This document shows positions 1,058-39,338 of a DNA stretch of 64,000 nucleotides, one piece after another; position 1 is the first letter of the stretch; every line of letters begins with the position of its first letter. The DNA lies in contig JBBTTC010000004.1 of the NCBI GenBank assembly GCA_038064435.1, forward strand, positions 3,615 to 67,614. Reading direction: 5' to 3'. The translations under genes were made by a program, and so were the position numbers. Source of the DNA: Patescibacteria group bacterium. GTDB lineage: Bacteria > Patescibacteriota > Minisyncoccia > Phycocordibacterales > JACOZG01. Below the pieces are notes generated by a model, which worked only from the letters and a program-made list of their open reading frames with translations, was not told where the DNA came from and ran no database searches.

Positions 1058-3004
1058 CTAATTGGGGCCGCAGGAGGAGCCAACGATGGAGCCGGTTATT
1101 TGTTTGGAATAGCCATCACTATCCACACACCAACTTTGATCATCAGCATCTGGCAATGGCGCAGAGACGGCAAAAGCACCGACCTTGCCCAAATTGTTAA
1201 CGGTAGAAACACAAGTGACTTTAGTAGCATCGCCGCCGCCGGCTCGCTGGAGAGAATCATAAATCGACTCGTCAGCAAATAATGTTTGTGCTTTGTTGCT
1301 GCATGGACCCAATGTAAACGGTTTTGTCCCATAACCACCTTTTTCCTCATAGACTAGTTCGGCCTGCGCCCTAATTGACGACAAGTGGGCCTTGGTGCTG
1401 GCTGCGGCTTGCTTGTCTCTGGCCGTATTGAAACCTAGCGCCTCGAGTATTTCGCTAACTGGCTTAGCACTGGCCGGCACTTCAACTATTACCGGCTGAT
1501 TAATGTCCGACAGGGTGGTTTTGAAGAGAAGATTCACCTGCTTGTCTTTGAGCTGGATAGCTGTGTCGGGCGGTACTAATCTGATCCGGTACTCGGACGC
1601 AACAGGAAAACCTTGCCCATCAACCCACAACGAGACAGCAGTATTCTGATCATAATAATCAAAAACCTTAGAAAATTCGCTACTGTTTAGATACTCAATC
1701 AATCCTTGATCGTCAAAACCAGACTGACGATAATCTGCGAGTTCGGGATCCTTGTCAATTTCAGCAACTAGCTTTTTATAAAAAGGCAGAAGTGCGTCTT
1801 TACGAATCTTAAGATCGTATCGGTACAAAGACTGATTATCAACCTTATCTTTATACGGGGGATTCTTGAGCACAAAGAGCCTTTCGCTGTCGGCCAAAGC
1901 CACAACTTTTTTGATCAAATGGACAGACTTTTCCCGGGCGCTTTTAAATTTTTCTTCTATTTCGGGCAATTCCGACACGAGGTCAGATAACTCATCACGC
2001 CCACCAATACTCGACAAGTCATTGGCCGAAACCTTGATCCACTGGCCCTTAACCGCCGAAAGGTCAAAGAAGAAAACGGATGGGAAATTGTTTAGTCTAA
2101 AATAATAATCTGAACCCTTCTTCAGCGCCTCCGCCCCCACCTTGTAAGTTAGATCGCCACCGGTATCACCATCGGCGGCAAAATTAAAACGCCAACTGGA
2201 TGGGGACGACTGGCCCCAATCAGCGGTAGCGCTAATGGCAACAGACCCGCTGATATCCGGTGGGATACGACTCGCGCTCTCGGTGAGTTGTGCCAAGAGT
2301 GGTTTTCCTGGCTCACTGGGTAGATAAAAATAACTATAACTATCTTTGGTAAAAGTAATTTGCTGGCCAGAGACAACCAAGCGTCTGTCTTCATATCCAT
2401 TGTCTTCATAATATCCATATCTTTCCGCGGCGCGACGAATGGTCAAAATCGATTGAGGCAGATCAAATGTCACCTTGAGACTAAAGTTCTTGCCCCCGTC
2501 AGTGACTTGATATTGATATGGCTGATGGGAAACAGGATCCTCAAAGTTGATTTTACGGCGACTGGTGGATAATTTATCTAGTGAAGTTGGATAAGGAGAC
2601 TTTGACTGCGCCAAGGCTGATAAAATGTCCGTAGCGTCTTTTGCCCGTTGAGCATCATTTTTGTACTTTTCCAACTGTTGTGTGTCGTTATATTCAATAG
2701 TAAACGGCTTGGCTCCAGTCTCTCGTACCGTCACATTGAGAGAACCAGATAAGGCATAGGTCAATGAATGAACTTCCGTCAGCTTGTCGGTCAATCCGGT
2801 AAATAAATTCCCCTCGTCGTAGGGTGGTTGGGAAAAAGGTCCAATCTTTTTTGCATAAGCGTAAGCCGCGCCCATAGCACCGAGCAAGATTATGACCAAA
2901 AAAATCAGCGGGATTAAGTGAGACTTTTTAGGCGAAGCTGGTACCACCAGAGTCGGCGGCACTGCTGGAATTGGGGTCACCGGCATAGTTTCCATACTCA
3001 ACAT
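1058..3004 (-). CDS. membrane-anchored hypothetical protein (648 aa) with pilin-like C-terminal Cys-loop motif
   Basis: N-terminal TM helix, large extracytoplasmic region; C-terminus SWCVDSDG...C is shared with the major pilin and ORF 22055..22714. Confidence 0.5.
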   Translation of the reverse strand: MLSMETMPVTPIPAVPPTLVVPASPKKSHLIPLIFLVIILLGAMGAAYAYAKKIGPFSQPPYDEGNLFTGLTDKLTEVHSLTYALSGSLNVTVRETGAKPFTIEYNDTQQLEKYKNDAQRAKDATDILSALAQSKSPYPTSLDKLSTSRRKINFEDPVSHQPYQYQVTDGGKNFSLKVTFDLPQSILTIRRAAERYGYYEDNGYEDRRLVVSGQQITFTKDSYSYFYLPSEPGKPLLAQLTESASRIPPDISGSVAISATADWGQSSPSSWRFNFAADGDTGGDLTYKVGAEALKKGSDYYFRLNNFPSVFFFDLSAVKGQWIKVSANDLSSIGGRDELSDLVSELPEIEEKFKSAREKSVHLIKKVVALADSERLFVLKNPPYKDKVDNQSLYRYDLKIRKDALLPFYKKLVAEIDKDPELADYRQSGFDDQGLIEYLNSSEFSKVFDYYDQNTAVSLWVDGQGFPVASEYRIRLVPPDTAIQLKDKQVNLLFKTTLSDINQPVIVEVPASAKPVSEILEALGFNTARDKQAAASTKAHLSSIRAQAELVYEEKGGYGTKPFTLGPCSNKAQTLFADESIYDSLQRAGGGDATKVTCVSTVNNLGKVGAFAVSAPLPDADDQSWCVDSDGYSKQITGSIVGSSCGPN

Positions 3005-3049
3005 TAATTGTCCTATGGTTGAGTTTAATCAACAAGGGGATAAGTGTGA

Positions 3050-3123
3050 TGCCGGCGGGAGGAATCGAACCTCCGACCTTGGGCTTATGAGTCCCACGCT
3101 CTAGCCAACTGAGCTACACCGGC
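3050..3123 (-). tRNA. tRNA-Met or tRNA-Ile2 (anticodon CAT), elongator type
   Basis: Minus-strand cloverleaf GCCGGTG...CTCATAA...TTCGATT...CGCCGGC. Confidence 0.75.
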
Positions 3124-3130
3124 AAAATCT

Positions 3131-3203
3131 TGTTGCGGGGGCCGGAATTGCACCGGCGCCTAGAGGTTATGAGCCTCTCGAGTTACTGCTTCTCTACCCC
3201 GCG
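3131..3203 (-). tRNA. tRNA-fMet-like (anticodon CAT), initiator-type acceptor
   Basis: CGCGGGG...CTCATAA...CCCCCGCAAC resembles E. coli initiator tRNA including a C1:A72 mismatch; D and T arms are atypical. Confidence 0.6.
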
Positions 3204-7561: not shown

Positions 7562-8098
7562 CTAATAGTAGTCGTTATAGTCAACCAGCAAACTGCGCTC
7601 GGTGCGTCGCGGATTGCTAGACACGCAACCGCTACCCGAGCCTATATTGTAACCGCTAGCCTCAATCAAGGTATCTGTCTGATCAGGATCCGCTGGTATT
7701 CTCTTGGTAACCTTCACGTCAACACAGGCACCATTATCTAATGCCAAACTGAATTGGGAAACTTGATTGCTAGGATGAGAAATAGTGAATACATTACTCA
7801 AACAAGAAGGGCCGGGGCCGCTGGCAGAAGCAAAAGAATCATTATTATTGCCAATCATAGCGCCAAAAACTTTGGGAGCAGAACCCGGATCAACGTAGGG
7901 ATAAACGTTGTCCCAATAGTGGGCGCACTCCAAACCAGTGAGCGCCGCATAATATGATTTGAGCGACTCGCGGGCTGTGGTGGAGATCAAAATTTGCTTG
8001 TAAGTGATGTTGAAGAGACTCAAACTAACGGTCAAGACAATGCTTACCAACAGTACGGCGTAGAAGAGTACGAATCCTTGGCTAAAATATTTTCTCAT
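7562..8098 (-). CDS. putative minor pilin-like protein (non-canonical N-terminus)
   Basis: N-terminal hydrophobic helix (SQGFVLFYAVLLV) lacking Glu5; last gene of the pseudopilin run. Confidence 0.35.
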   Translation of the reverse strand: MRKYFSQGFVLFYAVLLVSIVLTVSLSLFNITYKQILISTTARESLKSYYAALTGLECAHYWDNVYPYVDPGSAPKVFGAMIGNNNDSFASASGPGPSCLSNVFTISHPSNQVSQFSLALDNGACVDVKVTKRIPADPDQTDTLIEASGYNIGSGSGCVSSNPRRTERSLLVDYNDYY

Positions 8099-8102
8099 TT
8101 CA

Positions 8103-8711
8103 TCAATTGCTGGTCTTAAACAAATTTTGCACTAGGGTAACCGACTGAGATTGACCGCGATCGATCCAGTCAACGGTCGATGTAACTTTAAGCTCCTTGC
8201 CGGCAACAACTTCCTCAATCGTAAGCGTTCGGAAATATAAAAATCCAGACCAATAACCACCGCCGGCCGGATCGCCAAGAAACGACACGCACTCTACAAA
8301 GTCCACCGCTTGATTACAAATTTCATAATTATGATAAATATTATCGCCCAAATAAAGCCTTAGTGCTCTTATGGGATCACTTGGGCTAGGCAAGGGGGCA
8401 ATATTTATTTGCGACCCGCCATTTGCGGTCGTAACATCCACATAACAACCATTAGTAAAACAGGCGTTTAGTTTATTGTCCCAATCCGTGCCAGAACCTA
8501 ACGCTTGATTGAAATTACGTTGATTGATCACCGCCTCGAGAGCCTCTTGAGCCAAATAAGAACCGATAAGATAATTTTGCGCGTATCGCCCATCGCTAAT
8601 GCCGCGTGAGGCCATGGCCAAGGGGCCCAACACGCCAATGACCAAAATGGTGATGGCCACCAGCATCTCGACAAGAGTAAACCCGCGTTTGTGTTTAAAA
8701 AAATGATTCAT
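8103..8711 (-). CDS. type IV prepilin-like minor pilin / pseudopilin
   Basis: Class III signal KRGFTLVEMLVAI. Confidence 0.8.
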   Translation of the reverse strand: MNHFFKHKRGFTLVEMLVAITILVIGVLGPLAMASRGISDGRYAQNYLIGSYLAQEALEAVINQRNFNQALGSGTDWDNKLNACFTNGCYVDVTTANGGSQINIAPLPSPSDPIRALRLYLGDNIYHNYEICNQAVDFVECVSFLGDPAGGGYWSGFLYFRTLTIEEVVAGKELKVTSTVDWIDRGQSQSVTLVQNLFKTSN

Positions 8712-8713
8712 GT

Positions 8714-9325
8714 TTAATCAGAAATGGTGGTTTGCAATGTAAATTCAACCGGGTTACGCGGATCAACCACTCGCGCACTAAGCACCACTGACACCCGCGG
8801 GGCGGCTGGCTCGGTCGTTGGTAAATCAGGATGATCTTGATTACCATCCACATAAAATCGCAAGTCGGTGACTTCAACGCTCGGCAACGTAATTTGATTG
8901 GTTAGTGTATTTAAATTAATCGACCCACCGCTCGTTTCATCTGCAAATTTTATTGAGCCGGGAATTTCGCCGCTGGTGGGACGAAAAGCATAGAGAGCAT
9001 ACTGGCCGCTACTATCTTTAAGCAATAAACCTTCGCCGCCGTTACTGTCATCGCCAAAACCACAATTCTTATTACTAGCAGTGCCAATATTAATAGAGCC
9101 ACTGGCTTGATTAATGCAATGGCGTGTCTCAAAATATTTAATATTGTAAGCCATGTTTTCCAAGACGAAATGCAAATTGTCAGTCACCAATTTAATAGCC
9201 TGCACGCGCCGATTAACACGATTGGCCGTGAGCACCGCCCCAGTGGCTACCAAAGCCACCATCGAGAAAATCGTCACCGCCACCATGATCTCGATTAATG
9301 TAAAGCCGCGTTTGGTCATGAACAA
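8714..9325 (-). CDS. type IV prepilin-like minor pilin / pseudopilin
   Basis: Class III signal KRGFTLIEIMVAV. Confidence 0.8.
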   Translation of the reverse strand: MFMTKRGFTLIEIMVAVTIFSMVALVATGAVLTANRVNRRVQAIKLVTDNLHFVLENMAYNIKYFETRHCINQASGSINIGTASNKNCGFGDDSNGGEGLLLKDSSGQYALYAFRPTSGEIPGSIKFADETSGGSINLNTLTNQITLPSVEVTDLRFYVDGNQDHPDLPTTEPAAPRVSVVLSARVVDPRNPVEFTLQTTISD

Positions 9326-9948
9326 GTATAACCGTTAACCGTACCGGAGAACGGCTCGGCCAAAATTTGACCAGTAGAGACGACCCTAACGATCTGGCAA
9401 CGCTGTTGCTTGTCGCGGAGGGAATTTAAAACAATACCAATCTGGGTATACCCGGCACCCCCACCCAAGGTACCACCAGTGTTGTTGGTAAAAACAGCGT
9501 CAAGCTTGGGGCGGACAAACAAAACATTAAATGCCGACAACGGAGTGGCAAGATCACAACCAGACGAACAGTTGAGTCTAGCCAAAATGTTGACTCCGCC
9601 CGGCAGATTATAAGTTTCTATGCATTCAGTATTGCCGGAACCACAGCCAGAACCAACATCATAATAATTATTTTCAGTGGGTACGAAATCAGCGTACAAA
9701 ATTAAACTATTTGCACCGCCAAAATAAATCCCGTGGGAAGGAAATTTGCCAGCGAAGGACCGAGTGCCGACGCCGTAACTTTGTGCCTGACGAATAGTGA
9801 CGGCAATCTCCTGTGCTACCAACTCCAAAATAGTTTTGTCGCGGAAGCTTGGCAGATCAGCGATCACCACACTAGTGATGACGGTAAAAATACCGAGCAC
9901 CACCAACATCTCAATGAGCGAAAAACCGCGTTTAAAAGAAAAAAACAT
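9316..9948 (-). CDS. type IV prepilin-like minor pilin / pseudopilin
   Basis: Class III signal KRGFSLIEMLVVL. Confidence 0.8.
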   Translation of the reverse strand: MFFSFKRGFSLIEMLVVLGIFTVITSVVIADLPSFRDKTILELVAQEIAVTIRQAQSYGVGTRSFAGKFPSHGIYFGGANSLILYADFVPTENNYYDVGSGCGSGNTECIETYNLPGGVNILARLNCSSGCDLATPLSAFNVLFVRPKLDAVFTNNTGGTLGGGAGYTQIGIVLNSLRDKQQRCQIVRVVSTGQILAEPFSGTVNGYTCS

Positions 9949-10681
9949 TTAGATTGAAAAAAAAGTTGAGGGCAAAACCGAGCGCCAAGAAAGGCGCAAA
10001 CGGCACCTCCGCCTTAATTGTAGAATATCGTCCCACAGCGAGCAATGCCAAGCCCACACCAGCCCCGCTCCAAAACGACCAAACCATGGCACCTAAGGCG
10101 CCCGGCCAACCAAGAAGAAAGCCGAGGGCGAGGGCGAGTTTGGCGTCGCCCAAACCAAGCCAACGGCCGCGCGAACCCGCCCACAACAGAGCAAAAAATC
10201 CGGCCCAGCCAGCGCCGGTGGCCAAATACCACCAGCGATCGGGTTGAACTAGAGCATAAATTAAGGCTAGAGCGATAAGTAAATACACCGGCCCATCGGG
10301 AATAATTTGGTGCCGCCAATCATAGACTACGATCACAACGATCAAACTCATTACCAACCACCAAAGCAACCACCACCAATTAACTCCGGCCGGGCCGGCC
10401 GGAAATTTGCTGGCCACGGCGGCAAAGAGCGCCGCCGTGGCCAGCTCCACCAGCGGGTACTGCCAAGAAATTTTAGCGCGGCAGTAACGGCAACGGCCGC
10501 CCAAAAACAAAAAACTGAAAAGTGGTACCAGATCATACCAGGCGAGTTGCTGGCCGCAGGCCAAGCACAGCGATCGGCCGGCCACCGTGCGCCCGGTATT
10601 AAGTCGGTAAACAACAACATTCAAAAAACTGCCAACAATCAAGCCAAGGATAAACGTAAATACCAAAGTCAATTCCACCAC
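9932..10681 (-). CDS. pilD: prepilin peptidase (A24 family)
   Basis: N-terminal CxxC...CxxC zinc motif and polytopic membrane domain typical of PilD. Confidence 0.85.
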   Translation of the reverse strand: MVELTLVFTFILGLIVGSFLNVVVYRLNTGRTVAGRSLCLACGQQLAWYDLVPLFSFLFLGGRCRYCRAKISWQYPLVELATAALFAAVASKFPAGPAGVNWWWLLWWLVMSLIVVIVVYDWRHQIIPDGPVYLLIALALIYALVQPDRWWYLATGAGWAGFFALLWAGSRGRWLGLGDAKLALALGFLLGWPGALGAMVWSFWSGAGVGLALLAVGRYSTIKAEVPFAPFLALGFALNFFFNLNVFFF

Positions 10682-10713
10682 CCCCTCATTCTATCGCTTG
10701 CCAGCGCTAATCT

Positions 10714-10740
10714 CACTGTCAAGGACGATCCTTGACAGTG
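10714..10740. repeat. REP-like 27-nt palindrome cactgtcaaggacgatccttgacagtg (copy 1)
   Basis: 12-bp perfect stem with 3-nt loop; identical copy at 11438..11464; overlaps the 3' end of the RAYT ORF. Confidence 0.85.
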
Positions 10741-11405
10741 GAATACTCGATCCAATCGGAAACGAATTCCTGAAACTCATGCGCTTGATTAAAGTAATCT
10801 GGAAAATTTTTGTTGCCCGACAAGATTGAATCCGATGGTCGGGGCCTATCTCTATAGTAGGCGTAACTTGAATATTCATATTTATCAAGAAACTGTTGAG
10901 CAAATCTGGCGTCAATTATTATCTTGCTCTCCCAATTATGCGGATCAACTGTTTTCACGGGATTAAGATGAATATACGCAAAAAGATATTTAAGATACTC
11001 GTTATTATCAATATGGCTAGCTTTAAAAGTACCCTCGAACAAACTACCGCTTCGATTCTGCTTTTTATTGAAGTACATCGAGTATCCAGTTAAAAGCTTT
11101 TTCATAAAAATTGTCACACCATTATCGTCTTTTGCCCTTACCAATAAATGAAAATGATTGGGCATTAAACAGTAGGCCCCAATATCAACCATTTTTTCGC
11201 CGAACGATCTTGACCACAGATGGCTAATTGTCAAGGACGATCCTTGCCAGTCGCTGAGATGCACTGTTTGACGAAAATTTGCCACATGAAGCAAAACAAG
11301 AAAGCGAAGGTAGTCGCCATGGCCTAAAAATATTTGCCGACGATCGGTACCGCGATTGTAGAGATGATAATACTGGTCAGTAGCAAAAGCTGTTTTTCTT
11401 TGCAC
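10719..11405 (-). CDS. REP-associated tyrosine transposase (RAYT, IS200/IS605 TnpA-like Y1 HuH)
   Basis: HuH motif YCLMPNHFHLLV and conserved Tyr region; flanked by REP hairpins. Confidence 0.8.
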   Translation of the reverse strand: MQRKTAFATDQYYHLYNRGTDRRQIFLGHGDYLRFLVLLHVANFRQTVHLSDWQGSSLTISHLWSRSFGEKMVDIGAYCLMPNHFHLLVRAKDDNGVTIFMKKLLTGYSMYFNKKQNRSGSLFEGTFKASHIDNNEYLKYLFAYIHLNPVKTVDPHNWESKIIIDARFAQQFLDKYEYSSYAYYRDRPRPSDSILSGNKNFPDYFNQAHEFQEFVSDWIEYSTVKDRP

Positions 11406-11437
11406 AAAATAATTTTAACACCTCCCTATCGATAAGT

Positions 11438-11464
11438 CACTGTCAAGGACGATCCTTGACAGTG
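11438..11464. repeat. REP-like 27-nt palindrome (copy 2, identical)
   Basis: Exact repeat of 10714..10740, upstream of the RAYT gene. Confidence 0.85.
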
Positions 11465-11480
11465 GGCGCAGGAAAACAAA

Positions 11481-11504
11481 AACCCCGTGAGGGGTTTTTG
11501 TGGC
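11481..11504. terminator. bidirectional intrinsic terminator-like hairpin
   Basis: aaaaaccccgtgaggggttttt: GC stem with A- and T-runs on either side. Confidence 0.5.
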
Positions 11505-11554
11505 TGTGTCAGGACAGTGCGCTCGTGTGTCCGAAAGGACGGTCCTTGACAGTC
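11500..11554. repeat. degenerate REP-like elements
   Basis: gtcaggacagtg ... aaggacggtccttgacagtc, partial matches to the REP consensus. Confidence 0.5.
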
Positions 11555-11570
11555 AACGGCTAGGATAGTT

Positions 11571-12047
11571 TTAGGAACAGGAAGCAGCCGCAGCGCCACC
11601 TCCAATGGCCGCACCGGCTTTGGCTACACCAGCACTATTAACACACCATGATGTCGTATCTGGTAGGGTAGCCGAGACGGCCCAAGATGATGCCGCCGTT
11701 CCACCAGCAGCAGCCGTAAGATCACTGGATACACACTGAGCATCAGCATTAGCGTACGCGCCCTCTACGGCCACAATAGCTTGATTGATGTTGGTGTCAG
11801 CAAACAGAGTACTTGCTGTCGCCGCGCAATCGCCCAAATCGAAATCGGTGCCATAGCTTGTATTGTTGTCATAAAAAATCTCGGCTGAAGTCCTGATGCC
11901 AGCCATGTTTCCCTTAATAGCCCCGATGGTGCCTTTCTGGCGTGCTGTGTTCAAACTAGCCAGCACAATACCCGACAGGATGCCGATGATAGCAATAACG
12001 ACCAGAAGCTCGATGAGGGTAAAACCTCGTTTATAATTCTTACTCAT
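11571..12047 (-). CDS. type IV pilin (major pilin candidate)
   Basis: Class III signal KRGFTLIELLVVIAIIGIL; about 158 aa; C-terminal SWCVNS...C loop; sits between pilC and pilD. Confidence 0.8.
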   Translation of the reverse strand: MSKNYKRGFTLIELLVVIAIIGILSGIVLASLNTARQKGTIGAIKGNMAGIRTSAEIFYDNNTSYGTDFDLGDCAATASTLFADTNINQAIVAVEGAYANADAQCVSSDLTAAAGGTAASSWAVSATLPDTTSWCVNSAGVAKAGAAIGGGAAAASCS

Positions 12048-12153
12048 TATTTTCTTGAAAAACTTACTATTATCTACGACCAAATTGTTAATAAATGACG
12101 GCGTTCATTATAAACCCCCGCCCCAAACTGGCCAAGCGACCTGTGGATAACCA

Positions 12154-13359
12154 CTAGATGCCGGAAGCCAAATTGTAGATCGGCATGAGCACCGAGGTGA
12201 GCAACACGCCCACCATGAGGCCCAGAACCACGATCATGGCCGGCTCGATAAGGTCCACCAAGGTGCGGATCTCCTGTTCCACTTCGCGCCGGTAAAAACG
12301 CGACAGAGTGGAAAGTACGAAGCTCAATTTGCCCGATTCTTCGCCCACTTTGATCATCTGGATCATGATGTTAGGAATCTCGTGATATTTGTAGAAAATG
12401 GCTGACATTTGCCCGCCACCCTTGATCGTCTCGCTAGCCTCTTTAAGAATCTCGCGATAAATTTCACTGCCCACCACTTCGGAAGTAATTTCCAGCGCCC
12501 GCACCATGGAGATGCCGCTGGAAAGCATGGTACTCAAATTATCGGCCATGCGTGAGAGATAAATTTTTTGATACAGGCGGCCGACGTAGGGCACGGTGAG
12601 CTTAAAGCGGGCCAAGCTAGACCGACCGCCACCCGTACGCAAGTAACGCTGAAAGAAAAAGGTTAAAATGCCCAGCACGATCAAAAGCGGCGCCCAGTAA
12701 TTAATAAAGAAGTCGCTAACGCCGATGACGATGCGCGTGTAGATTGGTAGAGTCTGCCCCGTCTCGAGCAAAATGACACTCAACTTGGGAATAACTAAAG
12801 TGATCATCAAGATCATCACCACAATAAAGGAAACGATGACAAATAGCGGGTAAATTAGGGCGTTTTTAGCCTTGGACGTGAGTTCGAAAGCCCGCTCTAA
12901 GTAATCGGCCAAATAGGTAAAGTTATCCGACATTTTGCCCGACTCTTCACCAGCCTGAACCATGTGAACATAAAAATCAGAAAAAACTTTGGGGTGCTTG
13001 AGCAGGGCGCCGGAGATGGGCACGCCGCTCTTGATGTCGTCGGTGATCTCGGTGAGAACGTGGCGAAAGTAAGGATTGTCGGTCTCGGCGGCCAGCATGC
13101 GAAAGGTGGCCAAAGCCGAGACCTTGGCCTCAAACATGGTGGCGATCTGCCGCGACACCAAAACAATATCTTTATTTTTTACCTTGTGGCCAAGATGAAA
13201 GTGTTGACCGAGAAAACCAGTTTCGTCTTCAGCGTTAATGTCCACAATCACCAAGCCGCGCGTTTGCAGTGAGGTGATGGCGATGTTGACGTTAGGCGCG
13301 TCAATCGAGCCAGATTGCTGTTTCCCCTCTTTATCAACCGCCTGATAATTAAAAATCAT
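12154..13359 (-). CDS. pilC: type IV pilus platform protein PilC (GspF family)
   Basis: 401 aa, duplicated T2SS-F domain architecture with 3 TM segments. Confidence 0.9.
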   Translation of the reverse strand: MIFNYQAVDKEGKQQSGSIDAPNVNIAITSLQTRGLVIVDINAEDETGFLGQHFHLGHKVKNKDIVLVSRQIATMFEAKVSALATFRMLAAETDNPYFRHVLTEITDDIKSGVPISGALLKHPKVFSDFYVHMVQAGEESGKMSDNFTYLADYLERAFELTSKAKNALIYPLFVIVSFIVVMILMITLVIPKLSVILLETGQTLPIYTRIVIGVSDFFINYWAPLLIVLGILTFFFQRYLRTGGGRSSLARFKLTVPYVGRLYQKIYLSRMADNLSTMLSSGISMVRALEITSEVVGSEIYREILKEASETIKGGGQMSAIFYKYHEIPNIMIQMIKVGEESGKLSFVLSTLSRFYRREVEQEIRTLVDLIEPAMIVVLGLMVGVLLTSVLMPIYNLASGI

Positions 13360-14420
13360 AGCAGGCGATCCAAACTCTTGGGATTAAGCGAGTAGCGGTA
13401 GGCCACTTCGGCCGAGATCTGACTGCTACGCACCAGCTCGGACAAAGAATGATTGAGATCGATCATGCCTTGGTCGGAGCCGGTTTCGATCACCACATCA
13501 ATTTCCGGCGTGCGGCCCTCACGGATCAAGTTGGAAACAGCGTTGTTGTTAACCAAAAGCTCGTAGGCCGGTATTAGGCCGCCAGCGAGACGCGGCACTA
13601 GGCGCTGGGAGAAAATGCCGAGCAAACTGCCGGCTAGCTGAACGCGAATCTGGCGCTGTTGGTTGGGCGGGAAAGAGTCAATGATGCGGTCGATGGTTTG
13701 CGAGGCGCTATTGGTATGCAAGGTAGAAAAAATCAAGTGGCCGGTCTCGGCGGCGGTGACGGCGGTGGCGATGGTGTCGGGCTCGCGCATCTCGCCAATC
13801 ATGGCCACATTCACGTCTTGACGAAACATGGCGCGGAGGGCGGAATGGAAGTCGGCGGTATCAAACTTAACCTCGCGCTGATCAATAATGGAGCGATCGT
13901 TTTGAAAAATGTATTCCACTGGATCTTCGATCGTTACAATATGCTCGGCCCGCTCGGTGTTGATGAGTTGAATCATGGAAGCCAAGGTAGTGGACTTGCC
14001 CTGCCCAACCGGGCCGACTAAAAGGAAAAAGCCCTGCTCGCGACGCGTAAATTCCGTCAAGCGATCGGGCAAATTGAGTTCGGAAATTGATTTGATTTTG
14101 TTGGGAATAAGACGAAAAGAAGCGCCCACCACGCCCTTTTGGTAAAAAGCGTTGCCGCGAAAGCGTAAACCGCCAGCCACGCTGTAAGAAAAGTCGATGT
14201 CTTTCTTTTTGAGAAAGACTTCTCGATTGCCCTCGCTTAACGCCTCGGTAATTAAACCAATGGTGTCGGCCGGGGTGAGCTCGGGTTTTTTTACAATCGG
14301 AATTAAATCGCCCGAGACCCGAATAGTGGGATGGCGACCAACCGTTAAGTGCAGATCAGAGGCACCCTCGCGCGCCACGATCACCACCAAATCTTCTAAC
14401 TCTTTTTTGTAGTCGGTCAT
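13356..14420 (-). CDS. pilT: type IV pilus retraction ATPase PilT
   Basis: 354 aa, Walker A GPVGQGKSTT, PilT-length secretion ATPase. Confidence 0.85.
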   Translation of the reverse strand: MTDYKKELEDLVVIVAREGASDLHLTVGRHPTIRVSGDLIPIVKKPELTPADTIGLITEALSEGNREVFLKKKDIDFSYSVAGGLRFRGNAFYQKGVVGASFRLIPNKIKSISELNLPDRLTEFTRREQGFFLLVGPVGQGKSTTLASMIQLINTERAEHIVTIEDPVEYIFQNDRSIIDQREVKFDTADFHSALRAMFRQDVNVAMIGEMREPDTIATAVTAAETGHLIFSTLHTNSASQTIDRIIDSFPPNQQRQIRVQLAGSLLGIFSQRLVPRLAGGLIPAYELLVNNNAVSNLIREGRTPEIDVVIETGSDQGMIDLNHSLSELVRSSQISAEVAYRYSLNPKSLDRLL

Positions 14421-14836
14421 GATTTAAAAGCTGGCGGTACGGCTCGACCTAATTTTAACTGCTTCTGACCGGCAATCTCTTTGACCTTGGCCACCACCTC
14501 GGACGGCGTGGAGCTGGCCTTAACGATGTAACCGTCCACACCAAGGGTTAACGCTCGTTCAATATCATCCTTCTGTCCCAAATTGGAGAGAACGATGACC
14601 GTGGCGCGTCCCGTTACACCTTTATTGGCCAATTCTTGAATAAGTTGGAAGCCGTCCATGCCGGGCATGATGATGTCGATAAGGCAAATATCGGGCTGGA
14701 GACTGCCCGACACCTTCTCCAACGCTTCAGCGCCACTCATAGCCGACTCGATCGAGTAACCCAACTCCGAAAATTTGAGTGAGTACATATCGATCAAAAA
14801 CTTATCATCATCCACCAGCAAGATTTTTTCAGCCAT
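14417..14836 (-). CDS. single-domain response regulator (CheY/PilH-like receiver)
   Basis: Receiver-domain motifs LLVDDD...IDIIMPGMDG...K. Confidence 0.8.
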   Translation of the reverse strand: MAEKILLVDDDKFLIDMYSLKFSELGYSIESAMSGAEALEKVSGSLQPDICLIDIIMPGMDGFQLIQELANKGVTGRATVIVLSNLGQKDDIERALTLGVDGYIVKASSTPSEVVAKVKEIAGQKQLKLGRAVPPAFKS

Positions 14837-14851
14837 ACTTATATAATTATA

Positions 14852-16423
14852 TTACAGCTTACTCACCTCTTCAAATGGGATCTGCCCGGCAAAAGCCTTG
14901 ATTAGGGCATCCTCCCGCATGGTCAAAAAACCGTTGTGCCGAGCGGCTTTGTGGATGTCTTCTTCGGTGGGTTTAGTAAGCATCATATTTTCCACCTCGG
15001 GCGTGATACGCAAAACCTCAAACGCAGCAATACGGCCGCGCGTACCGCCCGGGCAGGTGGGTGAACGACTGGCGCGATAAACTTGGGCCGGCGGCTGGAG
15101 GCGCCCCTGCGCCTCCTTGGGAACCTCGGCCAAAATACTCTCAACCATGGCCTTAACACCACCCTCCACCGGCACTGCTTCTTTGGAATCGGCACACAAG
15201 AGCGGCACCAAACGTTGACCAATGGCCAGCACCAAGGTGGCAGCAATTAAGTATGGCTCGACACCCATGTCGACCAAACGCGGGATCACGCCGGCGGCAC
15301 TGTTGGTGTGCAAAGTGGCCAACACTAGGTGGCCGGTGAGTGAGGCCTGCACGGCCAAACGCGCCGTTTCTTCGTCGCGAATTTCGCCAACCATGATGAT
15401 GTCGGGGTCTTGACGCAAAATCGAGCGCAAACCGTTGGCAAAAGTATATTCAATCTCGGGCCGAACCTGGGATTGATTAACACCAGCAATGTTGTACTCA
15501 ATTGGATCTTCCAAACTAACAGCATTGTTTTTCTCTTTATCCAGCTCGTGAAGCATGGCATAGAGCGTGGTCGTTTTACCCGAGCCCGTTGGACCAGTGA
15601 CCAAAACTAAACCGTAGGGACGCTTAAGAATCTCGCGGATCACCACTAAATTCTCGTCACTCAAGCCGAGACCCGACATGTTGATAATATTTTTCTCCGG
15701 ATCAAGAATACGGATCACCACCTTCTCGCCAAAGTATGTTGGCAAGGTAGAAACACGGAAATCGATCTTGCGATTATCGATCCGGGCCGAGAAACGTCCG
15801 TCTTGTGGTTTGCGTCGCTCATCCAGTTTCATATTGGTCAAAATTTTGATGCGAGCCACCACCGCCTCATGCACCGAGGTAGGCAAAAACAAACTAGTAA
15901 ATAAAGCCCCATCGACACGAAAACGCACCTTAATATTGTCGGTCGACGGCTCAATGTGGATGTCGGAAGCATTGCCAGAAACAGCGTGTTGTAAAATCAC
16001 GGCCACAATTTTGGTTACCGGCGCCTCTTCCACAATCGTGGAACCAGTTTTAGCCGAGGTGATCTCACTCTTCAGCGCCGTCTCTGATTCTTCAGCCTTG
16101 ATTTCAGCATCCAGATCGCCCAAAGCCTTTGAAACCTGAGTCGTTAATGCCTCATAGCTGTTGATAACACGATTAAAATCGGCTTCAGAAATTAGAAAAA
16201 CCTTAAAAGGTAGCCCGAGACGCGAAGTGATAAACTGCAGAGCGTCACGAGCTTCAATATTGGTAGGCTCCGTCATGCCCACTTCGAGCACACCGTCGGC
16301 CAAACCGATCGGCACAAAACGATAGTAAGCCGCCGAACTACGGGAAATGTACTTTAAAACCTCGGGCGAGATACGCTCGTCCTCACCCAACTGACGACTT
16401 GGTACCTTAAGATCGCTATCCAT
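14852..16423 (-). CDS. pilB: type IV pilus assembly ATPase PilB (GspE family)
   Basis: 523 aa with N-terminal GspE-N domain, Walker A GPTGSGKTTT and tetracysteine motif. Confidence 0.9.
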   Translation of the reverse strand: MDSDLKVPSRQLGEDERISPEVLKYISRSSAAYYRFVPIGLADGVLEVGMTEPTNIEARDALQFITSRLGLPFKVFLISEADFNRVINSYEALTTQVSKALGDLDAEIKAEESETALKSEITSAKTGSTIVEEAPVTKIVAVILQHAVSGNASDIHIEPSTDNIKVRFRVDGALFTSLFLPTSVHEAVVARIKILTNMKLDERRKPQDGRFSARIDNRKIDFRVSTLPTYFGEKVVIRILDPEKNIINMSGLGLSDENLVVIREILKRPYGLVLVTGPTGSGKTTTLYAMLHELDKEKNNAVSLEDPIEYNIAGVNQSQVRPEIEYTFANGLRSILRQDPDIIMVGEIRDEETARLAVQASLTGHLVLATLHTNSAAGVIPRLVDMGVEPYLIAATLVLAIGQRLVPLLCADSKEAVPVEGGVKAMVESILAEVPKEAQGRLQPPAQVYRASRSPTCPGGTRGRIAAFEVLRITPEVENMMLTKPTEEDIHKAARHNGFLTMREDALIKAFAGQIPFEEVSKL

Positions 16424-16818
16424 TAGCGACGATTAGTAGTTGAAGCCGAGCTGCCCGATGTACTAGCCACCGCGGCGGCCTCAACACCGATGGGCAAGAA
16501 AGGATTGGGTCGACCCTTGGGCTGACGCTGAAGAACAACGCTGTGATCTTGGAGTCCGCGCAAAAACAGGGGGGAAGTTAAAAATTCGTCAGTCAGGTTA
16601 ATTCTCTGCATGGCGGCAATGAGACGTAAAAATTGATCATTGGCTTGGGCGGTGTCGGTGAGACCGCCTTCGAGAAAACCGGCCGGCCGCAAACCATCTG
16701 GCTCGGGCGGAGTGGCCTCACCAAACAACCACCAATAACCAGCAAAAATCGCTACCGCCACAAGACCAAAAACTATCACCGCCAAAATTGGTTTTTTTGT
16801 CATCATGTTTTTAGCCAA
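16423..16818 (-). CDS. small membrane protein in pilus assembly operon (PilP-like position)
   Basis: 131 aa, single N-terminal TM; translationally coupled to pilB. Confidence 0.4.
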   Translation of the reverse strand: MAKNMMTKKPILAVIVFGLVAVAIFAGYWWLFGEATPPEPDGLRPAGFLEGGLTDTAQANDQFLRLIAAMQRINLTDEFLTSPLFLRGLQDHSVVLQRQPKGRPNPFLPIGVEAAAVASTSGSSASTTNRR

Positions 16819-17345
16819 TAAGTTTGCAGTTCAACATTGTAAGTTGACGGGCTTTCGTTGGCCGCCGTAAAACCGAGGCTCACCACATCAACCACGCGCA
16901 AGCTGTTGGCCAACTCATTGAGTAGTATCTTAAGCTGATCGTAAGAAGCCGTCACAGCAAAGCTTACGCCGAGCGGCTCGGGCACGGTCACCGTCCGCTC
17001 ATCCGCCACAGCGGACTCCTGCTCGCTAGTGCGAACCGAAATATTTTTAACCACCAAACCAAGGCCACGAGCGATGCTATTGATTTCAATAATTAAACGA
17101 ACGTTGTCGATATGGTCGGGTAAAAGCTTTTTGAGACGAGTTTTTTGGTCTGATGAAATATTGTTATAGTCAGCCAAGAGCGCATCGTAAATTTCTCGCG
17201 ACTGCTTGGCCGTGTCTAAAACTTCCTGCAATTCGTCACGACGAAGCTTAAGGGTGTTAACCTCTTGCATCCATGGATCGGTAAGATAGAAAAAACCGGC
17301 AATCGCCCCGCCAATTAGCAACAATGGTAAAAACAATCTAATCAT
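16803..17345 (-). CDS. PilO-like pilus assembly protein
   Basis: N-terminal TM then coiled-coil, 180 aa, between the PilN-like ORF and pilB. Confidence 0.55.
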   Translation of the reverse strand: MIRLFLPLLLIGGAIAGFFYLTDPWMQEVNTLKLRRDELQEVLDTAKQSREIYDALLADYNNISSDQKTRLKKLLPDHIDNVRLIIEINSIARGLGLVVKNISVRTSEQESAVADERTVTVPEPLGVSFAVTASYDQLKILLNELANSLRVVDVVSLGFTAANESPSTYNVELQTYWLKT

Positions 17346-17974
17346 GGTGTGGAATTATCGAGATAACGTTGGTAGGAAACGAGTTCCGGCGCCAGATCAA
17401 GCGTGAGCTTAAAACCGACTCGACCATTGTCACCCAAAACAAGGTCGGAGAAAACGAATTTGCTGATCTCCCGACCGGCCTCAGCGCCCAGCTCATCCGA
17501 CTGCAAAGCAATACTCTCGTAACCGGCCGCTTTGCCACTTAAAACCACTTGCCCCTCACGATAATTAAAATTATCGTAACTAATAGTCTTTAACGTTTGA
17601 GCTTCAAGTAAATCGAAAACTGGCAAAAGGGTTAGGTGCCCGCCAATCACACTCTTCGCCCCCTGCAACCGATCATAAAAAGACTGGATGTCGGCAATTA
17701 ATTGTTGATCAAGCTCCTGCCGCTGACGTTCTAACTTGGCCTCCAAACCACAATTGATCGTGGTTGAGTCAAGACTAGTTTCGCAAGGACGCTTTATTTC
17801 ACTAGTTAAATAGGAGCGAAAAGCGTAAACACCACCAGCAAACAAAAAACTTACCACAAACACTAACGTGCTTAAAATCATAAACAGACTACGTGGTTCA
17901 TGCCGGCGACTTGGGCCAGTGGCCAAAACCTGTTTGGGTATAAACGAAGTGTTGTCGTGATTATCCATAGCCAA
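17342..17974 (-). CDS. PilN-like pilus assembly protein
   Basis: Short cytoplasmic N-terminus, TM, coiled-coil periplasmic region; follows pilM. Confidence 0.55.
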   Translation of the reverse strand: MAMDNHDNTSFIPKQVLATGPSRRHEPRSLFMILSTLVFVVSFLFAGGVYAFRSYLTSEIKRPCETSLDSTTINCGLEAKLERQRQELDQQLIADIQSFYDRLQGAKSVIGGHLTLLPVFDLLEAQTLKTISYDNFNYREGQVVLSGKAAGYESIALQSDELGAEAGREISKFVFSDLVLGDNGRVGFKLTLDLAPELVSYQRYLDNSTP

Positions 17975-19078
17975 TTATCTTAATTCAGCCAATTGCCGAA
18001 GGGCCAAGCCAGTGGCCACGGCAAAGCCGGGGCCGGTGGATGCCAGAGCTTTTTCCAAAAAGGCCGGGGCCTGGGTTTTGGCAAAAGGGTTGCCCAACTC
18101 CACCGGCGCAGCAAAACTTTTGGCCGCCATCTCGAGCAAACCCTTAAGTAGGGCGCCACCGCCCAACAAAACTATTTTACTCACGGCTCGTTTTTGCTGT
18201 TCTTGATAAAGCATTAAAACTTTATTGGTTTCAGAAAATATATACTCGACGATAGTGTTGACCGTGCTGGAAATGTCACCGCCCTCCAGATGTTCCACCA
18301 GCCCCACTCGCCGCTTGATCTCCTCAGCCTTAGCAAAATCAACTCCGAGGGCCCGAGCGATGCTAAGGGTAATATCCTGCGCTCCCTTACCAATAGTGTG
18401 CGACAGTCGAACAATGCCATAATCCACTACCGTTACCTTGCTGGTGGAGGCACCGATGTCTAAAATAACGGTGACCGTCATTTCGCCAGAAAAGACCGCT
18501 CGCAGGGCACTGAAGGTCTCGATTTCAAAAAACGCTGGCGTTAATCCCTTGGCCTGACTGATGTCGCGATATTGGCTAATCGTCTCTTGGTGAATGGCGG
18601 CGACTAACACCTGCGTCTTTTTTTCTCCACCTTCACTCCTCACGGCCGGTGGCGGAATCACCCACCAATCTAACTCCACTTCCGAGATCGGCACCGGCAC
18701 ATACTTCCGCGCCTCAATCGGAATCACCTTAGTGAGAGTGGCGGCCGGAATATTGCCCGGCAAGGTAACCATAACCAACAAACTAGAGCGCAAGGGTATG
18801 GCCAAGGCGCAACTAGCGGCCGTGACGCTGGCTTCAGTAAAAAGGTCGGTTAATAGTTGGGCCGTCTTCTCATTATTAAGACGTGCCACCTGACTTACGG
18901 CCAGATCGGCATAGGGACCGATCGCCAGTTCACCATAAGTTTCTAACACGGCCTGACCTTTGTCCTTTTTTAGTTGAACCACCTTGACCGACGACGAGCC
19001 AATATCAATACCCACCACTTGGGTTGATTTTTTTTGCCAAAGACCAAAACTAAAAAACTTTTCTAGCGGCCTCACCAT
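17975..19078 (-). CDS. pilM: type IV pilus assembly protein PilM (actin-like ATPase fold)
   Basis: VGIDIGSSSVKVV phosphate-1 motif, 367 aa. Confidence 0.85.
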   Translation of the reverse strand: MVRPLEKFFSFGLWQKKSTQVVGIDIGSSSVKVVQLKKDKGQAVLETYGELAIGPYADLAVSQVARLNNEKTAQLLTDLFTEASVTAASCALAIPLRSSLLVMVTLPGNIPAATLTKVIPIEARKYVPVPISEVELDWWVIPPPAVRSEGGEKKTQVLVAAIHQETISQYRDISQAKGLTPAFFEIETFSALRAVFSGEMTVTVILDIGASTSKVTVVDYGIVRLSHTIGKGAQDITLSIARALGVDFAKAEEIKRRVGLVEHLEGGDISSTVNTIVEYIFSETNKVLMLYQEQQKRAVSKIVLLGGGALLKGLLEMAAKSFAAPVELGNPFAKTQAPAFLEKALASTGPGFAVATGLALRQLAELR

Positions 19079-22054: not shown

Positions 22055-22714
22055 ATGGATCAAACGATCAACCCACAACCACCACCCAAATCAAAAGTTG
22101 GCTGGAGGTGGCTAGCGCCGGCATTGCTGGTCTTAATTTTTATGTATTTTCTCGTACTCGAAAACTTAGGGTTTTTTGCGAGAAGAGACTACACGACATG
22201 GTTGGATTTTATTACTTGGACACTGGTGATAACTTGGTTTGCCTCCATCGTGGTTTCAATTATTTTGGGCATTATTACTCCTAATAAAAAATATAAATCT
22301 ATATCCTTATTGTTGGCAGTAACAGCGCTGGTTTTGACCTACTATTTGTCTCTGCCGCAAAGTCATCCGAAAAGACCCTCTGGCGCCGGGACAAGAGCAG
22401 CTATGGCTACGGTCCGTTTCGAATCCGAACTTTTTTACGACAATGTTGGCAATAATACTTACGGCCAAGTAACTGCAAATTGCGAGCAACCCAATTCACT
22501 TTTCGATTACGAGCCCATTAGGCAGGCAATCAATGCGGCCGAACAATATTCGAAGAACGAGGCAGTATGCCTATCGACGCCGGAAGCTTATGCCGCCTCA
22601 ATTAAACTGCCAGACAAAAACACATTTTGGTGCATCGACAGTACCGGTTTTGCCGGCGAAACTTTAAGAAACATCACCCGGCCCATCTGTGGGGAAAAAG
22701 TGTCAAATCAGTAA
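22055..22714 (+). CDS. membrane protein with pilin-like C-terminal Cys-loop motif
   Basis: Three N-terminal TM helices; C-terminus FWCIDSTG...C shared with the pilin. Confidence 0.5.
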   Translation: MDQTINPQPPPKSKVGWRWLAPALLVLIFMYFLVLENLGFFARRDYTTWLDFITWTLVITWFASIVVSIILGIITPNKKYKSISLLLAVTALVLTYYLSLPQSHPKRPSGAGTRAAMATVRFESELFYDNVGNNTYGQVTANCEQPNSLFDYEPIRQAINAAEQYSKNEAVCLSTPEAYAASIKLPDKNTFWCIDSTGFAGETLRNITRPICGEKVSNQ

Positions 22715-22721
22715 CCGGTGA

Positions 22722-23381
22722 TCAGACTAAATCTTTTTTCTTGCTCTCAAATTCATCTTTATTAATTTCGCCTTTGGCGTAACGGCTTTTAAGAACTTCA
22801 AGAGCGGAACCGCCCGGCACCTGCCCATGACCCGCTAGCCATTTAACGAGCGAAACAACACCAAAGATCACCAATACCCACCATAAAATCATCAATAGCC
22901 AACCGAGACCACCGGCGCGTGCATGAGCAAAATATCCGGGCCCACCACCGCCCCAGGTCTGCATCATCGGCATCCAACCACCAAAATTGCCCATACCGCC
23001 CAAAGCTGAAGCCGACGGATCACAACCCGACAAACGTTTGCCGAGCGCGATGTGAATCTGCTCCTCTCCCTCCTCACCATGAGCTTGGACCATCATGGCA
23101 TTCATGGCGGCATGCGACTCGCCCATCATCTGCCCCATGTAATATTCGCCCAGCACGCCAAACTGTTCGTCGCCCAAACTCGTGCAGGTAATTTCTTTGG
23201 CCTGCAATTTAGACCACAGTTCCAAGCCTTCTTGTTCCTCACGGGCGGTATGCTCCACAATTTCATCCCAATCAACTGCGACACCCGCGCGGCCGCCACC
23301 CATCATCATCTGCGCTTCAGCGTCATTGATAAAAAACAAAACACTGCCAGCAAACATCATCCCAAAAATAATTTTTTTCAT
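22722..23381 (-). CDS. exported Met/His-rich protein with C-terminal SHOCT domain (candidate copper-binding)
   Basis: Signal peptide; Met-rich stretches MMMGGG, MGQMMGESHAAMNAMMVQAHG, WMPMMQTWGGGG; C-terminal TM plus SHOCT-like LKSRYAKGEINKDEFESKKKDL. Confidence 0.5.
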   Translation of the reverse strand: MKKIIFGMMFAGSVLFFINDAEAQMMMGGGRAGVAVDWDEIVEHTAREEQEGLELWSKLQAKEITCTSLGDEQFGVLGEYYMGQMMGESHAAMNAMMVQAHGEEGEEQIHIALGKRLSGCDPSASALGGMGNFGGWMPMMQTWGGGGPGYFAHARAGGLGWLLMILWWVLVIFGVVSLVKWLAGHGQVPGGSALEVLKSRYAKGEINKDEFESKKKDLV

Positions 23382-23397
23382 GTTTACAATTAAATCG

Positions 23398-23781
23398 CTA
23401 TTTAAACCAATCTCTGGGTGTGCGCGGCCAGCCGCGCACCAAAAGTAGGGCCAGCGGCGCGCCCCAATTAGCCCAACGTTCGACGAAATCCCAAATTGGA
23501 TCAGGCCCGAATGGCCAGCGAACCATTGCAGTCCATAGTCCCCACACCATCATCCAGAGGAGAGCTACACGAACCGGCCTAATGAGAACTAAGAGAGCTA
23601 ACGTTACGTCGATAATGCCAATAAAAAAAAGAATCGTGGTGATTGTATCGGCATTGATAATACCGAATGGATAGAAATACTTAAACCACCCCTCCTTGCC
23701 CTGAAGCGCAAACATACCGTGGCCAATGAACTCGCCAGCCACCGCGATACGCAAAACCCATTCGACAAGTTTTACATTCAT
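23398..23781 (-). CDS. small polytopic membrane protein (DoxX-like)
   Basis: 127 aa with about 4 TM helices. Confidence 0.4.
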   Translation of the reverse strand: MNVKLVEWVLRIAVAGEFIGHGMFALQGKEGWFKYFYPFGIINADTITTILFFIGIIDVTLALLVLIRPVRVALLWMMVWGLWTAMVRWPFGPDPIWDFVERWANWGAPLALLLVRGWPRTPRDWFK

Positions 23782-23839
23782 TAATTATTTTTATTACTAA
23801 ACTATTAATAAACACCGCTCATTTTAATTTTACCACCTT

Positions 23840-25900: not shown

Positions 25901-25906
25901 AAGGTT

Positions 25907-26332
25907 TTATTTGAGTTCCCACTTAAATAAACGTTCGGAAACAGCACCAACGTTTTTGATTTTTAATTCCAGATAGTTGGAAGAGTAATCGAGAGATTGG
26001 AATACCAGTACACCCGCCCGATGATGCCCGCCGACTGCTCCCTCCCATCTTATGGGCCGATGCTCCGCGCCTCGGTCATCAGTCAAAGTAGTTACACTGA
26101 CCATATCCTGATCTAGTTCGATCGAATGTGTATCCATCACTACGTTGAACATCCATTCCCGAGAACCGGACGACAACTTTATGGGCGTCACGGCCACAGT
26201 AACACCGGCCCGCTGATCGCTTTTTGTTTCCCATTTTTGCTGTACTTGTTCTGGCAAACGCTCCTCATAAAAAACCAATATCGCCACAAGGAAAGCGGCG
26301 ACCAAGATGATTATGGTCGTTGATTTTTTCAT
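25907..26332 (-). CDS. hypothetical exported protein
   Basis: 141 aa with N-terminal TM/signal; coupled to the ATPase gene. Confidence 0.4.
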   Translation of the reverse strand: MKKSTTIIILVAAFLVAILVFYEERLPEQVQQKWETKSDQRAGVTVAVTPIKLSSGSREWMFNVVMDTHSIELDQDMVSVTTLTDDRGAEHRPIRWEGAVGGHHRAGVLVFQSLDYSSNYLELKIKNVGAVSERLFKWELK

Positions 26333-26772
26333 AGATGCTTTTTGAACTTGATGATTTTATGACCGATAAATACGATCCCCAAAATATTGAAGGCTAAACC
26401 AACCCAAAAGATCTGTAACTGATATTGAGCGACGAAGGAAAGAGCACCGGCCAAACCAAGCAAAGGCACGATATTGGTCAAGTAATGGGCGCAACACGAA
26501 ATCATCGAGAGCGTCGAAGTTGTACCGGTCACGCCCAAAATCTTAGCCGCGCCGGGCCGTCCGACGATCAGACCCCGAAGATAAACATACAAGCCAACCT
26601 GAACACCAAAACCAAAAGCCAAACTGGTGATAAAATACCAGAAATCAGCAAACTGCCCCCAAGTAAAATTCCAACCAGAAACCAAGGTCAACACCGCAAA
26701 ATACAGCCCGAGCAACAGCAAGCTGGCCGATAAACCGTATACTAGTGATTTTTTTACCTCAAACATCCTCAT
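26329..26772 (-). CDS. hypothetical membrane protein
   Basis: 147 aa, 4 TM helices, CCAHY motif. Confidence 0.4.
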   Translation of the reverse strand: MRMFEVKKSLVYGLSASLLLLGLYFAVLTLVSGWNFTWGQFADFWYFITSLAFGFGVQVGLYVYLRGLIVGRPGAAKILGVTGTTSTLSMISCCAHYLTNIVPLLGLAGALSFVAQYQLQIFWVGLAFNILGIVFIGHKIIKFKKHL

Positions 26773-26781
26773 AGTTTTATT

Positions 26782-36461: not shown

Positions 36462-36490
36462 TCCTACAAAAAGACCAGTTCGATGGTAGA

Positions 36491-39322: not shown

Positions 39323-39338
39323 CTCATTAAAACATTAG

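Follow-up and report, generated by a model that had tools for sequence, protein, structure and literature searches.

Among the organelles by which the ultrasmall, host-dependent Patescibacteria may contact their hosts, type IV pili (T4P) have the best support. In type IVa pilins, such as P. aeruginosa PAK PilA and Neisseria PilE, the head consists of alpha1-C, an alpha-beta loop and a four-stranded sheet, and its C-terminal D-region is a Cys-bracketed loop that opens with an aromatic residue and a Cys. Pilin modules can be joined to unrelated modules by domain shuffling, as in the modular type IV pilins (S. sanguinis PilB and PilC, CofB, GspK; Raynaud et al. 2021), many of which come from candidate phyla (PMC8179133); in these proteins the pilin module is N-terminal, carries a class III signal and polymerises. 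In archaea, FlaF, whose archaellin domain is incomplete and carries no class III signal, is indispensable for the archaellum, and both FlaF and FlaG (ArlF/ArlG) hold a filament-subunit-type domain outside the filament, on an N-terminal helix that stays uncleaved in the membrane (PMC4425475). A limited literature search retrieved no description of pilin-like domains on non-pilin proteins of CPR or Patescibacteria.

We analysed a window of 64,000 nucleotides (the term is used here for the whole stretch) of a Patescibacteria contig originating from Hainich groundwater, well H41. It contains three copies of one pilin head domain in three architectures: a canonical prepilin, a 219-aa derivative with three transmembrane (TM) helices, and a 648-aa anchored protein. 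The resemblance to type IVa pilins extends from the elements of the head to the Cys-bracketed loop at its end, and the window's pilin likewise has a full class III signal and a T4P operon. The head differs from theirs in having two conserved Cys pairs, in matching no Pfam or NCBIfam model, and in being carried by two proteins, of 219 and 648 aa, that have no cleavable class III signal. Modular pilins share with these two proteins the joining of a pilin module to unrelated modules, yet here a lone head sits C-terminally, internally or in tandem on proteins predicted to be unable to polymerise, and these are not modular pilins in the sense above. For a filament subunit turned static membrane protein, FlaF and FlaG might be the closest precedent in concept, as a functional analogy. 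They are archaeal, have the archaellin beta-sandwich fold, belong to the archaellum operon and are needed for assembly, whereas the 648-aa and three-TM (3TM) families are not T4P-linked and combine one or three TM helices with other domains.

The T4P operon (7562..19078, minus strand), recognised through Pfam hits, contains in order pilM, a pilN-like gene, pilO, pilB, a response regulator, pilT, pilC, the pilin gene, a Y1 transposase-like ORF, pilD and three minor pilins, and also includes one degenerate pilin-like ORF. The canonical prepilin (11571..12083, minus strand; PF07963 E 1.7e-10, TIGR02532 E 6.6e-10) has a class III signal with the site KRG↓FTLIE and a hydrophobic alpha1-N continuous with alpha1-C, and is likely the major pilin of the operon. 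Translation probably starts at the ATG at 12047, giving a 158-aa form with the leader MSKNYKRG↓FTLIELL; the database form (P0001) has 158 aa, and a promoter-like TTGGCC-17-TATAAT lies upstream, at 12135-12107. Between pilB and pilT, the response regulator is annotated as a stand-alone receiver gene (14417-14836, minus strand), and the ORF separating the pilin gene from pilD belongs to the IS200-like Y1 transposase family (10719-11405, minus strand; PF01797 E 9e-10). The minor-pilin block ends with a 178-aa ORF (7562-8098, minus strand) whose N-terminus, MRKYFSQGFVLFYAVLL, is hydrophobic and pilin-like; it shows neither a PF07963 match nor Glu5 and, judging from its sequence, may be another non-canonical pilin-like protein.

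Translation of positions 11571-11660 (minus strand) gives DTTSWCVNSAGVAKAGAAIGGGAAAASCS followed by the stop, i.e. the C-terminus of the 170-aa pilin ORF. The first-pass annotation had reported a WC[VI][DN]S-G...C motif at this end and at the C-termini of two membrane proteins, and the translations bear this out. The 648-aa ORF (1058..3004, minus strand) ends in QSWCVDSDGYSKQITGSIVGSSCGPN (WCVDSDG...C type) and the 219-aa ORF (22055..22714, plus strand) in TFWCIDSTGFAGETLRNITRPICGEKVSNQ (WCIDSTG...C type), four residues beyond the end quoted earlier; the two Cys are 22 residues apart in the pilin and 19 in each of the other two. When the window is translated in six frames, the relaxed pattern WC[VILM][DNST][SAT] has exactly three matches, at these same three sites. 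The motif is therefore real, but the similarity is not confined to the last ~27 residues: by BLASTP, pilin residues 44-169 match residues 525-645 of the 648-aa protein (38% identity, E 2e-19), the pilin matches the 219-aa protein at E 2e-12, and the latter two proteins match each other at E 1e-10. These alignments show a shared predicted domain of ~110-125 aa, of which the motif is the C-terminal end. The suggestion that the C-terminal module is pilin-like has thus gained in extent, since its homology covers the whole pilin head, beginning with alpha1-C and ending with the D-region-like Cys loop. It had also been proposed that the two larger proteins lack a prepilin signal; indeed, neither the 219-aa nor the 648-aa protein matches PF07963 or TIGR02532, and a regular-expression scan finds no such motif in either.

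In the pilin, the head covers residues 44-170 of the 170-aa ORF (11574..11954, minus strand; delimited by BLASTP, alignment and profile search), and the flagged WCVNS...C loop (11577..11648, minus strand), located by translation and alignment, holds the second Cys pair in a position like that of the type IVa D-region. An HMM built from the three copies detects no fourth copy in the window. In six-frame ORFs of the window and 88 related loci (~957,000 aa), WC[VI][DN]S occurs 98 times, with all 98 occurrences inside hits of the head-domain HMM and none outside the domain. The pattern is therefore a signature of the domain and not a chance or cytoplasmic motif, which settles the earlier concern that it might be common in unrelated cytoplasmic proteins.

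A profile of the three copies retrieved 1755 relatives from a protein database at E ≤ 1e-3. The best 120 of these 1755 are nearly all PF07963 proteins of 140-180 aa from Patescibacteria (Paceibacteria, Nomura-, Kaiser-, Zambryskibacteria and others), and 112 of the 120 have a G↓FTLIE-type site. In an alignment of 118 sequences the columns R, Y, C, C, C, S and G are invariant, and W, V, D and the last C nearly so; on the strength of this column conservation, WC[VI]DS.G...C is the family signature of a pilin head and is not peculiar to the three proteins. We call the domain the class-1 head, our own label for the head of the type IVa-like pilins of Paceibacteria (Parcubacteria). In it, alpha1-C is followed by an alpha-beta loop and a four-stranded sheet; of its two conserved Cys pairs, the second brackets the WC[VI]DS.G...C loop. 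Four Cys, and not two, are conserved in the alignment of the three copies, consistent with two disulfides. As in a D-region, both Cys of the 19-22-residue loop are invariant or nearly so in the family alignments, and in the AlphaFold2 (AF2) models of the 648-aa and 219-aa proteins the WC...C loop comes after the third and fourth strands of the head.

Searched with the three-sequence profile, the PDB yielded no relative. A full-length family profile did match solved type IVa pilins (9laa PilA, 5kua PilE, and 6xxd/6xxe, Thermus PilA4/PilA5), with alignments reaching the head in 9laa (1-132), 5kua (9-114) and 6xxe (9-117). Foldseek searches of the full-length 648-aa and 219-aa models against the PDB gave no significant hit, PAK pilin 1dzo ranking 50th with E 3.9, so the assignment of a pilin fold stands on homology of sequence and not on a structural match. 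Against BFVD, the 648-aa model likewise gave nothing significant: ssRNA-phage maturation proteins, which bind pili, were its best matches there (top E 4.6e-3, TM 0.08-0.10, rmsd 28 Å), and we treated them as noise. Together with LolA/half-barrel matches, they were disregarded at query-normalised TM-scores of 0.05-0.11.

The 219-aa protein (P0002, NCBI AAB468_01175) is a polytopic pilin derivative with three TM helices (residues 17-37, 46-73 and 83-99 in the AF2 model; 22103..22351, plus strand) and a class-1 head (residues 107-213, by HMM hit and AF2; 22373..22693, plus strand). Its model has a pLDDT of 83 overall and of 94-98 over head residues 111-210, and the head shows helices H111-131 and H153-166 and four strands in the order of secondary structure typical of pilins. 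An alternative start that would turn the ORF into a normal pilin was rejected, as no G↓F site exists anywhere within it. A word-index homologue search with this protein found only itself; when 1.84 billion representatives were scanned exhaustively with phmmer, 236 relatives came up. Among the best 150 of these 236, the layout of three TM helices plus head, in proteins of 199-250 aa, is present in at least 24 clusters at 50% identity, with variants bearing two heads or extra domains.

Several results place this family on the pilin sequence itself. MAFFT sets the pilin GFTLIELL... segment without gaps on residues 79-106 of the 219-aa protein; in the family alignment TM3 leads straight into the pilin alpha1 sequence ...LASLNTAR.KG; and the canonical-pilin HMM (positions 6-18) aligns into TM3 in 20 of 28 members. 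A K/R-rich cytoplasmic loop occupies the position of the leader peptide. Gly-1 is found in none of 20 members and Glu5 in two; the position equivalent to +5 holds two Glu and one Asp among the 20, and we rejected Glu5 as a retained feature of the family. This collinearity of TM3 with alpha1-N, the loop at the leader position and the loss of Gly-1 and Glu5 show the 3TM family to be a pilin derivative in which a two-TM hairpin stands in place of leader and cleavage site, with TM3 as a degenerate alpha1-N. The residues needed for PilD cleavage and filament assembly appear, from these alignments, to be lost in the family. In the window's copy the junction between TM3 and head has diverged to LSLPQSHPKRPSG, with a Pro-rich break, PQSHPKRP, of low pLDDT, and the model shows a helix broken between H83-99 and H111-131.

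A subset of 3TM proteins (e.g. P0146, P0157, P0167, P0182, P0224 and P0253) has an extra Cys in the outside loop between TM1 and TM2 (LDC, LNC or FNC) and another in an insertion of the head (GLFCPA/GLFCRK), a pairing that suggests a possible third disulfide linking loop and head.

The 648-aa protein (P0121; 1058..3004, minus strand; AF2 pLDDT 83.6) is a bitopic surface protein with 21 homologues of 569-752 aa in Parcubacteria (E down to 4e-176), a family in which no Pfam domain is detected. Its single N-terminal TM anchor (residues 30-51; 2852..2917, minus strand), supported by AF2 helix H30-51, hydropathy and motif scan, has no G↓FxxxE site. The model shows one TM helix, a large mixed ectodomain, a low-confidence linker (525-530), taken as a flexible tether, and the class-1 head (residues 525-648; 1061..1432, minus strand; HMM E 1.8e-60), modelled as H529-555 plus four strands at a pLDDT of ~90 and again in pilin-type order. 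Here alpha1-N and alpha1-C are not continuous, the head being preceded by the linker after a 470-aa ectodomain.

The same family contains a second pilin-derived component. Twelve of its 22 members end in a class-1 head, and four (P0130, P0133, P0136 and P0138) carry instead the head of another pilin class, class 2; this alternative domain matches canonical class-2 pilins at E values down to 2e-16. Of the remainder, five are headless and the last has a Cys-rich tail of another kind. Class-2 pilins match PF07963 and, with scores close to the cut-off of 21 bits (19.5-22.6), also PF08334, the T2SSG family of GspG; they stand in tandem with class-1 pilins in T4P loci. The internal segment of the 648-aa protein at residues ~115-186 (2447..2662, minus strand) is related to these T2SSG-like heads: hhalign of the family sub-alignment against class-2 heads gives a probability of 97.6% and E 4.7e-12 over 72 columns, and a jackhmmer search started from the C-terminus of P0136 matches the equivalent internal region of 648-family orthologues. 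In contrast to T2SSG domains, this module lacks alpha1-N, lies inside a large ectodomain and has no direct Pfam hit, the best result on the segment plus alternative C-termini being T2SSG at E 0.11; its homology to class-2 heads is therefore shown through intermediate class-2 pilins. Taken from these comparisons, the 648-aa protein appears to be built with two pilin-derived modules, the C-terminal one exchangeable. The first-pass annotation had described the two membrane proteins as otherwise unrelated to the pilin, and this no longer holds for either, given a 3TM family collinear with the whole pilin, with TM3 as its degenerate alpha1-N, and a second, internal pilin-derived module in the 648-aa protein.

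Class-2 (T2SSG-like) pilins adjoin class-1 pilins in several related T4P loci (L012, L022, L023); no class-2 pilin is present anywhere in the window.

Beyond these two families the class-1 head behaves as a mobile extracytoplasmic module. Among its hits in 80 GTDB species-representative loci, 160 of 168 are canonical pilins, three are 648-like and one has a degenerate signal. Elsewhere it accompanies PG_binding_1, FKBP_C and Ig-like domains, all extracytoplasmic; for instance, P0152 combines two PG_binding_1 domains with a head and FKBP_C. The exhaustive phmmer scan also found heads in tandem pairs, in mid-protein and at the C-terminus, as well as one true modular pilin, P0183. A neighbour-joining tree of 286 heads is unresolved (the largest pure clades hold 4 of 28 and 6 of 24 members) and silent on whether fusion was single or repeated.

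Proteins with two class-1 heads are seen in other genomes (P0155, P0156, P0178, P0181, P0186, P0205, P0249 and P0143). One two-head group is ~500 aa long, with heads at ~70-160 and ~420-520, and P0143 joins three TM helices to two tandem heads.

In the window the 648-aa and 219-aa genes are 4.5 kb and 3 kb from the T4P operon, outside it. Orthologues of the 648-aa gene have housekeeping neighbours and no T4P gene within 10 kb, and in the other loci with flanking sequence available no T4P gene was found within 8-10 kb of either family; the 3TM genes examined adjoin fmt/def, rpiB-like or gatB genes. The nearness to the T4P operon seen in the window is therefore not conserved. The window's 219-aa gene abuts a heavy-metal P-type ATPase cluster (22722-28994, minus strand) with an HMBD-type ATPase (23840-25900), a DsbD/SfLAP-like ORF (27718-28500) and a DUF1573 ORF (28500-28994), all on the minus strand. 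The gene of a distant 3TM member (P0167; L094, 1572-10216) lies directly behind a Cu-ATPase gene, which it overlaps, in company with DsbD_TM, thioredoxin, cupredoxin and HMA genes. A general link of 3TM genes to copper P-type ATPase/DsbD clusters was rejected, as adjacency is seen in only two of nine contexts, these two.

We consider static display of the pilin head to be the best explanation as a whole, with a probability of roughly 0.6. The 219-aa and 648-aa proteins would be inserted by Sec/YidC with the head outside, an orientation suggested by the positive-inside distribution of charges, the conserved Cys pairs and the thiol-disulfide oxidoreductases reported to be enriched in CPR genomes (PMC6744442). 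Since Gly-1, Phe1 and Glu5 are missing, PilD would not cleave them and the pilus motor could not extract them, so that they would stay in the membrane as static displays of the head. The head would be a reusable extracytoplasmic binding module, with anchored copies making short-range surface contact with the targets of the pilus head (host surface or matrix) and complementing long-range capture by the pilus. We place high confidence in the identity of the head and the non-polymerising status of both proteins; that anchored heads provide short-range contact at the cell surface is a tentative proposal, to which we give a little less than even odds. Four observations count against static display: in the window the two genes are no more than 3-4.5 kb away from the T4P cluster, a 3TM subset has Glu or Asp at the position equivalent to +5, full-length models have no significant Foldseek match in the PDB, and the C-terminal head of 648 orthologues switches between the two pilin head classes.

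One alternative, a more specific form of the first-pass proposal, is that the anchored heads are pilus-associated, docking on the pilus base, the pilin pool or the fibre through the head-head or alpha1 contacts of pilins; the 3TM protein could then be an anchor, terminator or stator, and the 648-aa protein a pilus-binding surface receptor. The anchored heads are indeed of the same class as the operon's pilin, TM3 of the 3TM family is collinear with alpha1-N and runs straight into LASLNTAR, 648 orthologues bear one or other of the two head classes whose pilins stand in tandem in T4P loci, in the window neither gene is far from the T4P and comFC cluster, and FlaF provides a precedent (PMC4425475). 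However, Gly-1 is absent and only two of 20 3TM members keep Glu5, the low-pLDDT PQSHPKRP break separates TM3 from alpha1-C in the window's 219-aa protein, T4P genes are missing within 8-10 kb in the other loci with flanking sequence, and five 648-family members are headless. We consider this alternative unlikely. The suggestion in the first-pass annotation that the two larger proteins may be associated with the pilus tip gains no supporting result: both lack Gly-1, Phe1 and Glu5, and the relatives of both families are found among housekeeping genes and not T4P genes. Its other proposal, that they are pilin-interacting adhesins, is possible. The head swap between two pilin classes in 648 orthologues could also mean that the module matches the cell's own pilins and not an external ligand.

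In a more elaborate version, which we judge rather improbable, the secretin-less T4P of Patescibacteria would have dedicated partners in the 3TM proteins and the head-bearing members of the 648 family. The former would be an uncleavable pilin mimic at the pilus base (a terminator/anchor or FlaF-like stator), and the latter a surface receptor on which retracted or neighbouring pili dock by means of a tethered head of the same class as the cell's own pilin. If this were true, pilin heads would serve as a system of self-recognition and link the dynamics of the pilus to the cell surface during episymbiosis.

In another alternative the head would bind the cell's own wall or S-layer and tether the ectodomain in the envelope, with no part in host contact. 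P0152, where the head accompanies a pair of PG_binding_1 domains and an FKBP foldase, points this way, as do the precedent of FlaF, an S-layer binder, and the headless orthologues, which show the head to be accessory to the ectodomain. Against this, the same domain is exposed, as pilin head, on a pilus far from the wall, and we regard envelope binding as improbable, slightly more so than the previous proposal. Far less likely still is that these are decaying pilin paralogues without function, or artefacts of gene calling or assembly. Decay would fit the diverged TM3-head junction of the window's 219-aa protein and the word-index search that found only the query, but both architectures are found in dozens of 50%-identity clusters drawn from many samples, the four Cys are invariant or nearly so, the heads are modelled at a pLDDT of ~90 or above, and an identical protein is present on 14 contigs. 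Chance or convergence of a short motif in unrelated proteins, for which nothing speaks except the shortness of the motif as first described, is practically negligible in view of pairwise E values of 1e-10 to 2e-19 over ~110-125 aa and of the confinement of all 98 occurrences to the head domain.

The shared pilin head domain explains the motif. The same pilin head appears to have been moved repeatedly onto putatively uncleavable membrane anchors and large surface proteins; it exists in tandem copies, and among orthologues it is swapped between classes. This marks out a reusable extracytoplasmic module and two uncharacterised protein families as candidates for the cell-contact surface, and the anchored proteins would be a bacterial counterpart to archaeal FlaF/FlaG, in which a filament subunit has become a static membrane protein. 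Natural heads without alpha1-N, as tethered and presumably soluble-folding domains, are testable constructs.

Some further features accompany these genes. In most 648 orthologues (P0123-P0141) the TM helix is preceded by a Pro-rich linker and, at the very N-terminus, by a ~45-aa cytoplasmic motif, LLDYIR.Q...G.....I...L...GW....I..AF; the motif is missing in the window's 648-aa protein and also opens one 3TM-type protein (P0214). The gene of a DUF2157 membrane protein directly precedes the 648-family gene in two loci and is no more than 7 kb from it in a third (L004 9009-9992, L005 613-1596, L086 15288-16295); the window's DUF2157 gene (30119-31096) is 27 kb from its 648-aa gene. Lastly, two tRNA-Met genes (3048-3203, minus strand) directly precede the 648-aa gene in the same orientation, ARAGORN places a tRNA-Ile gene with anticodon TAT at 36389-36464 (plus strand), and a tmRNA gene (38948-39323) directly follows an ORF taken, by its sequence, as SmpB.
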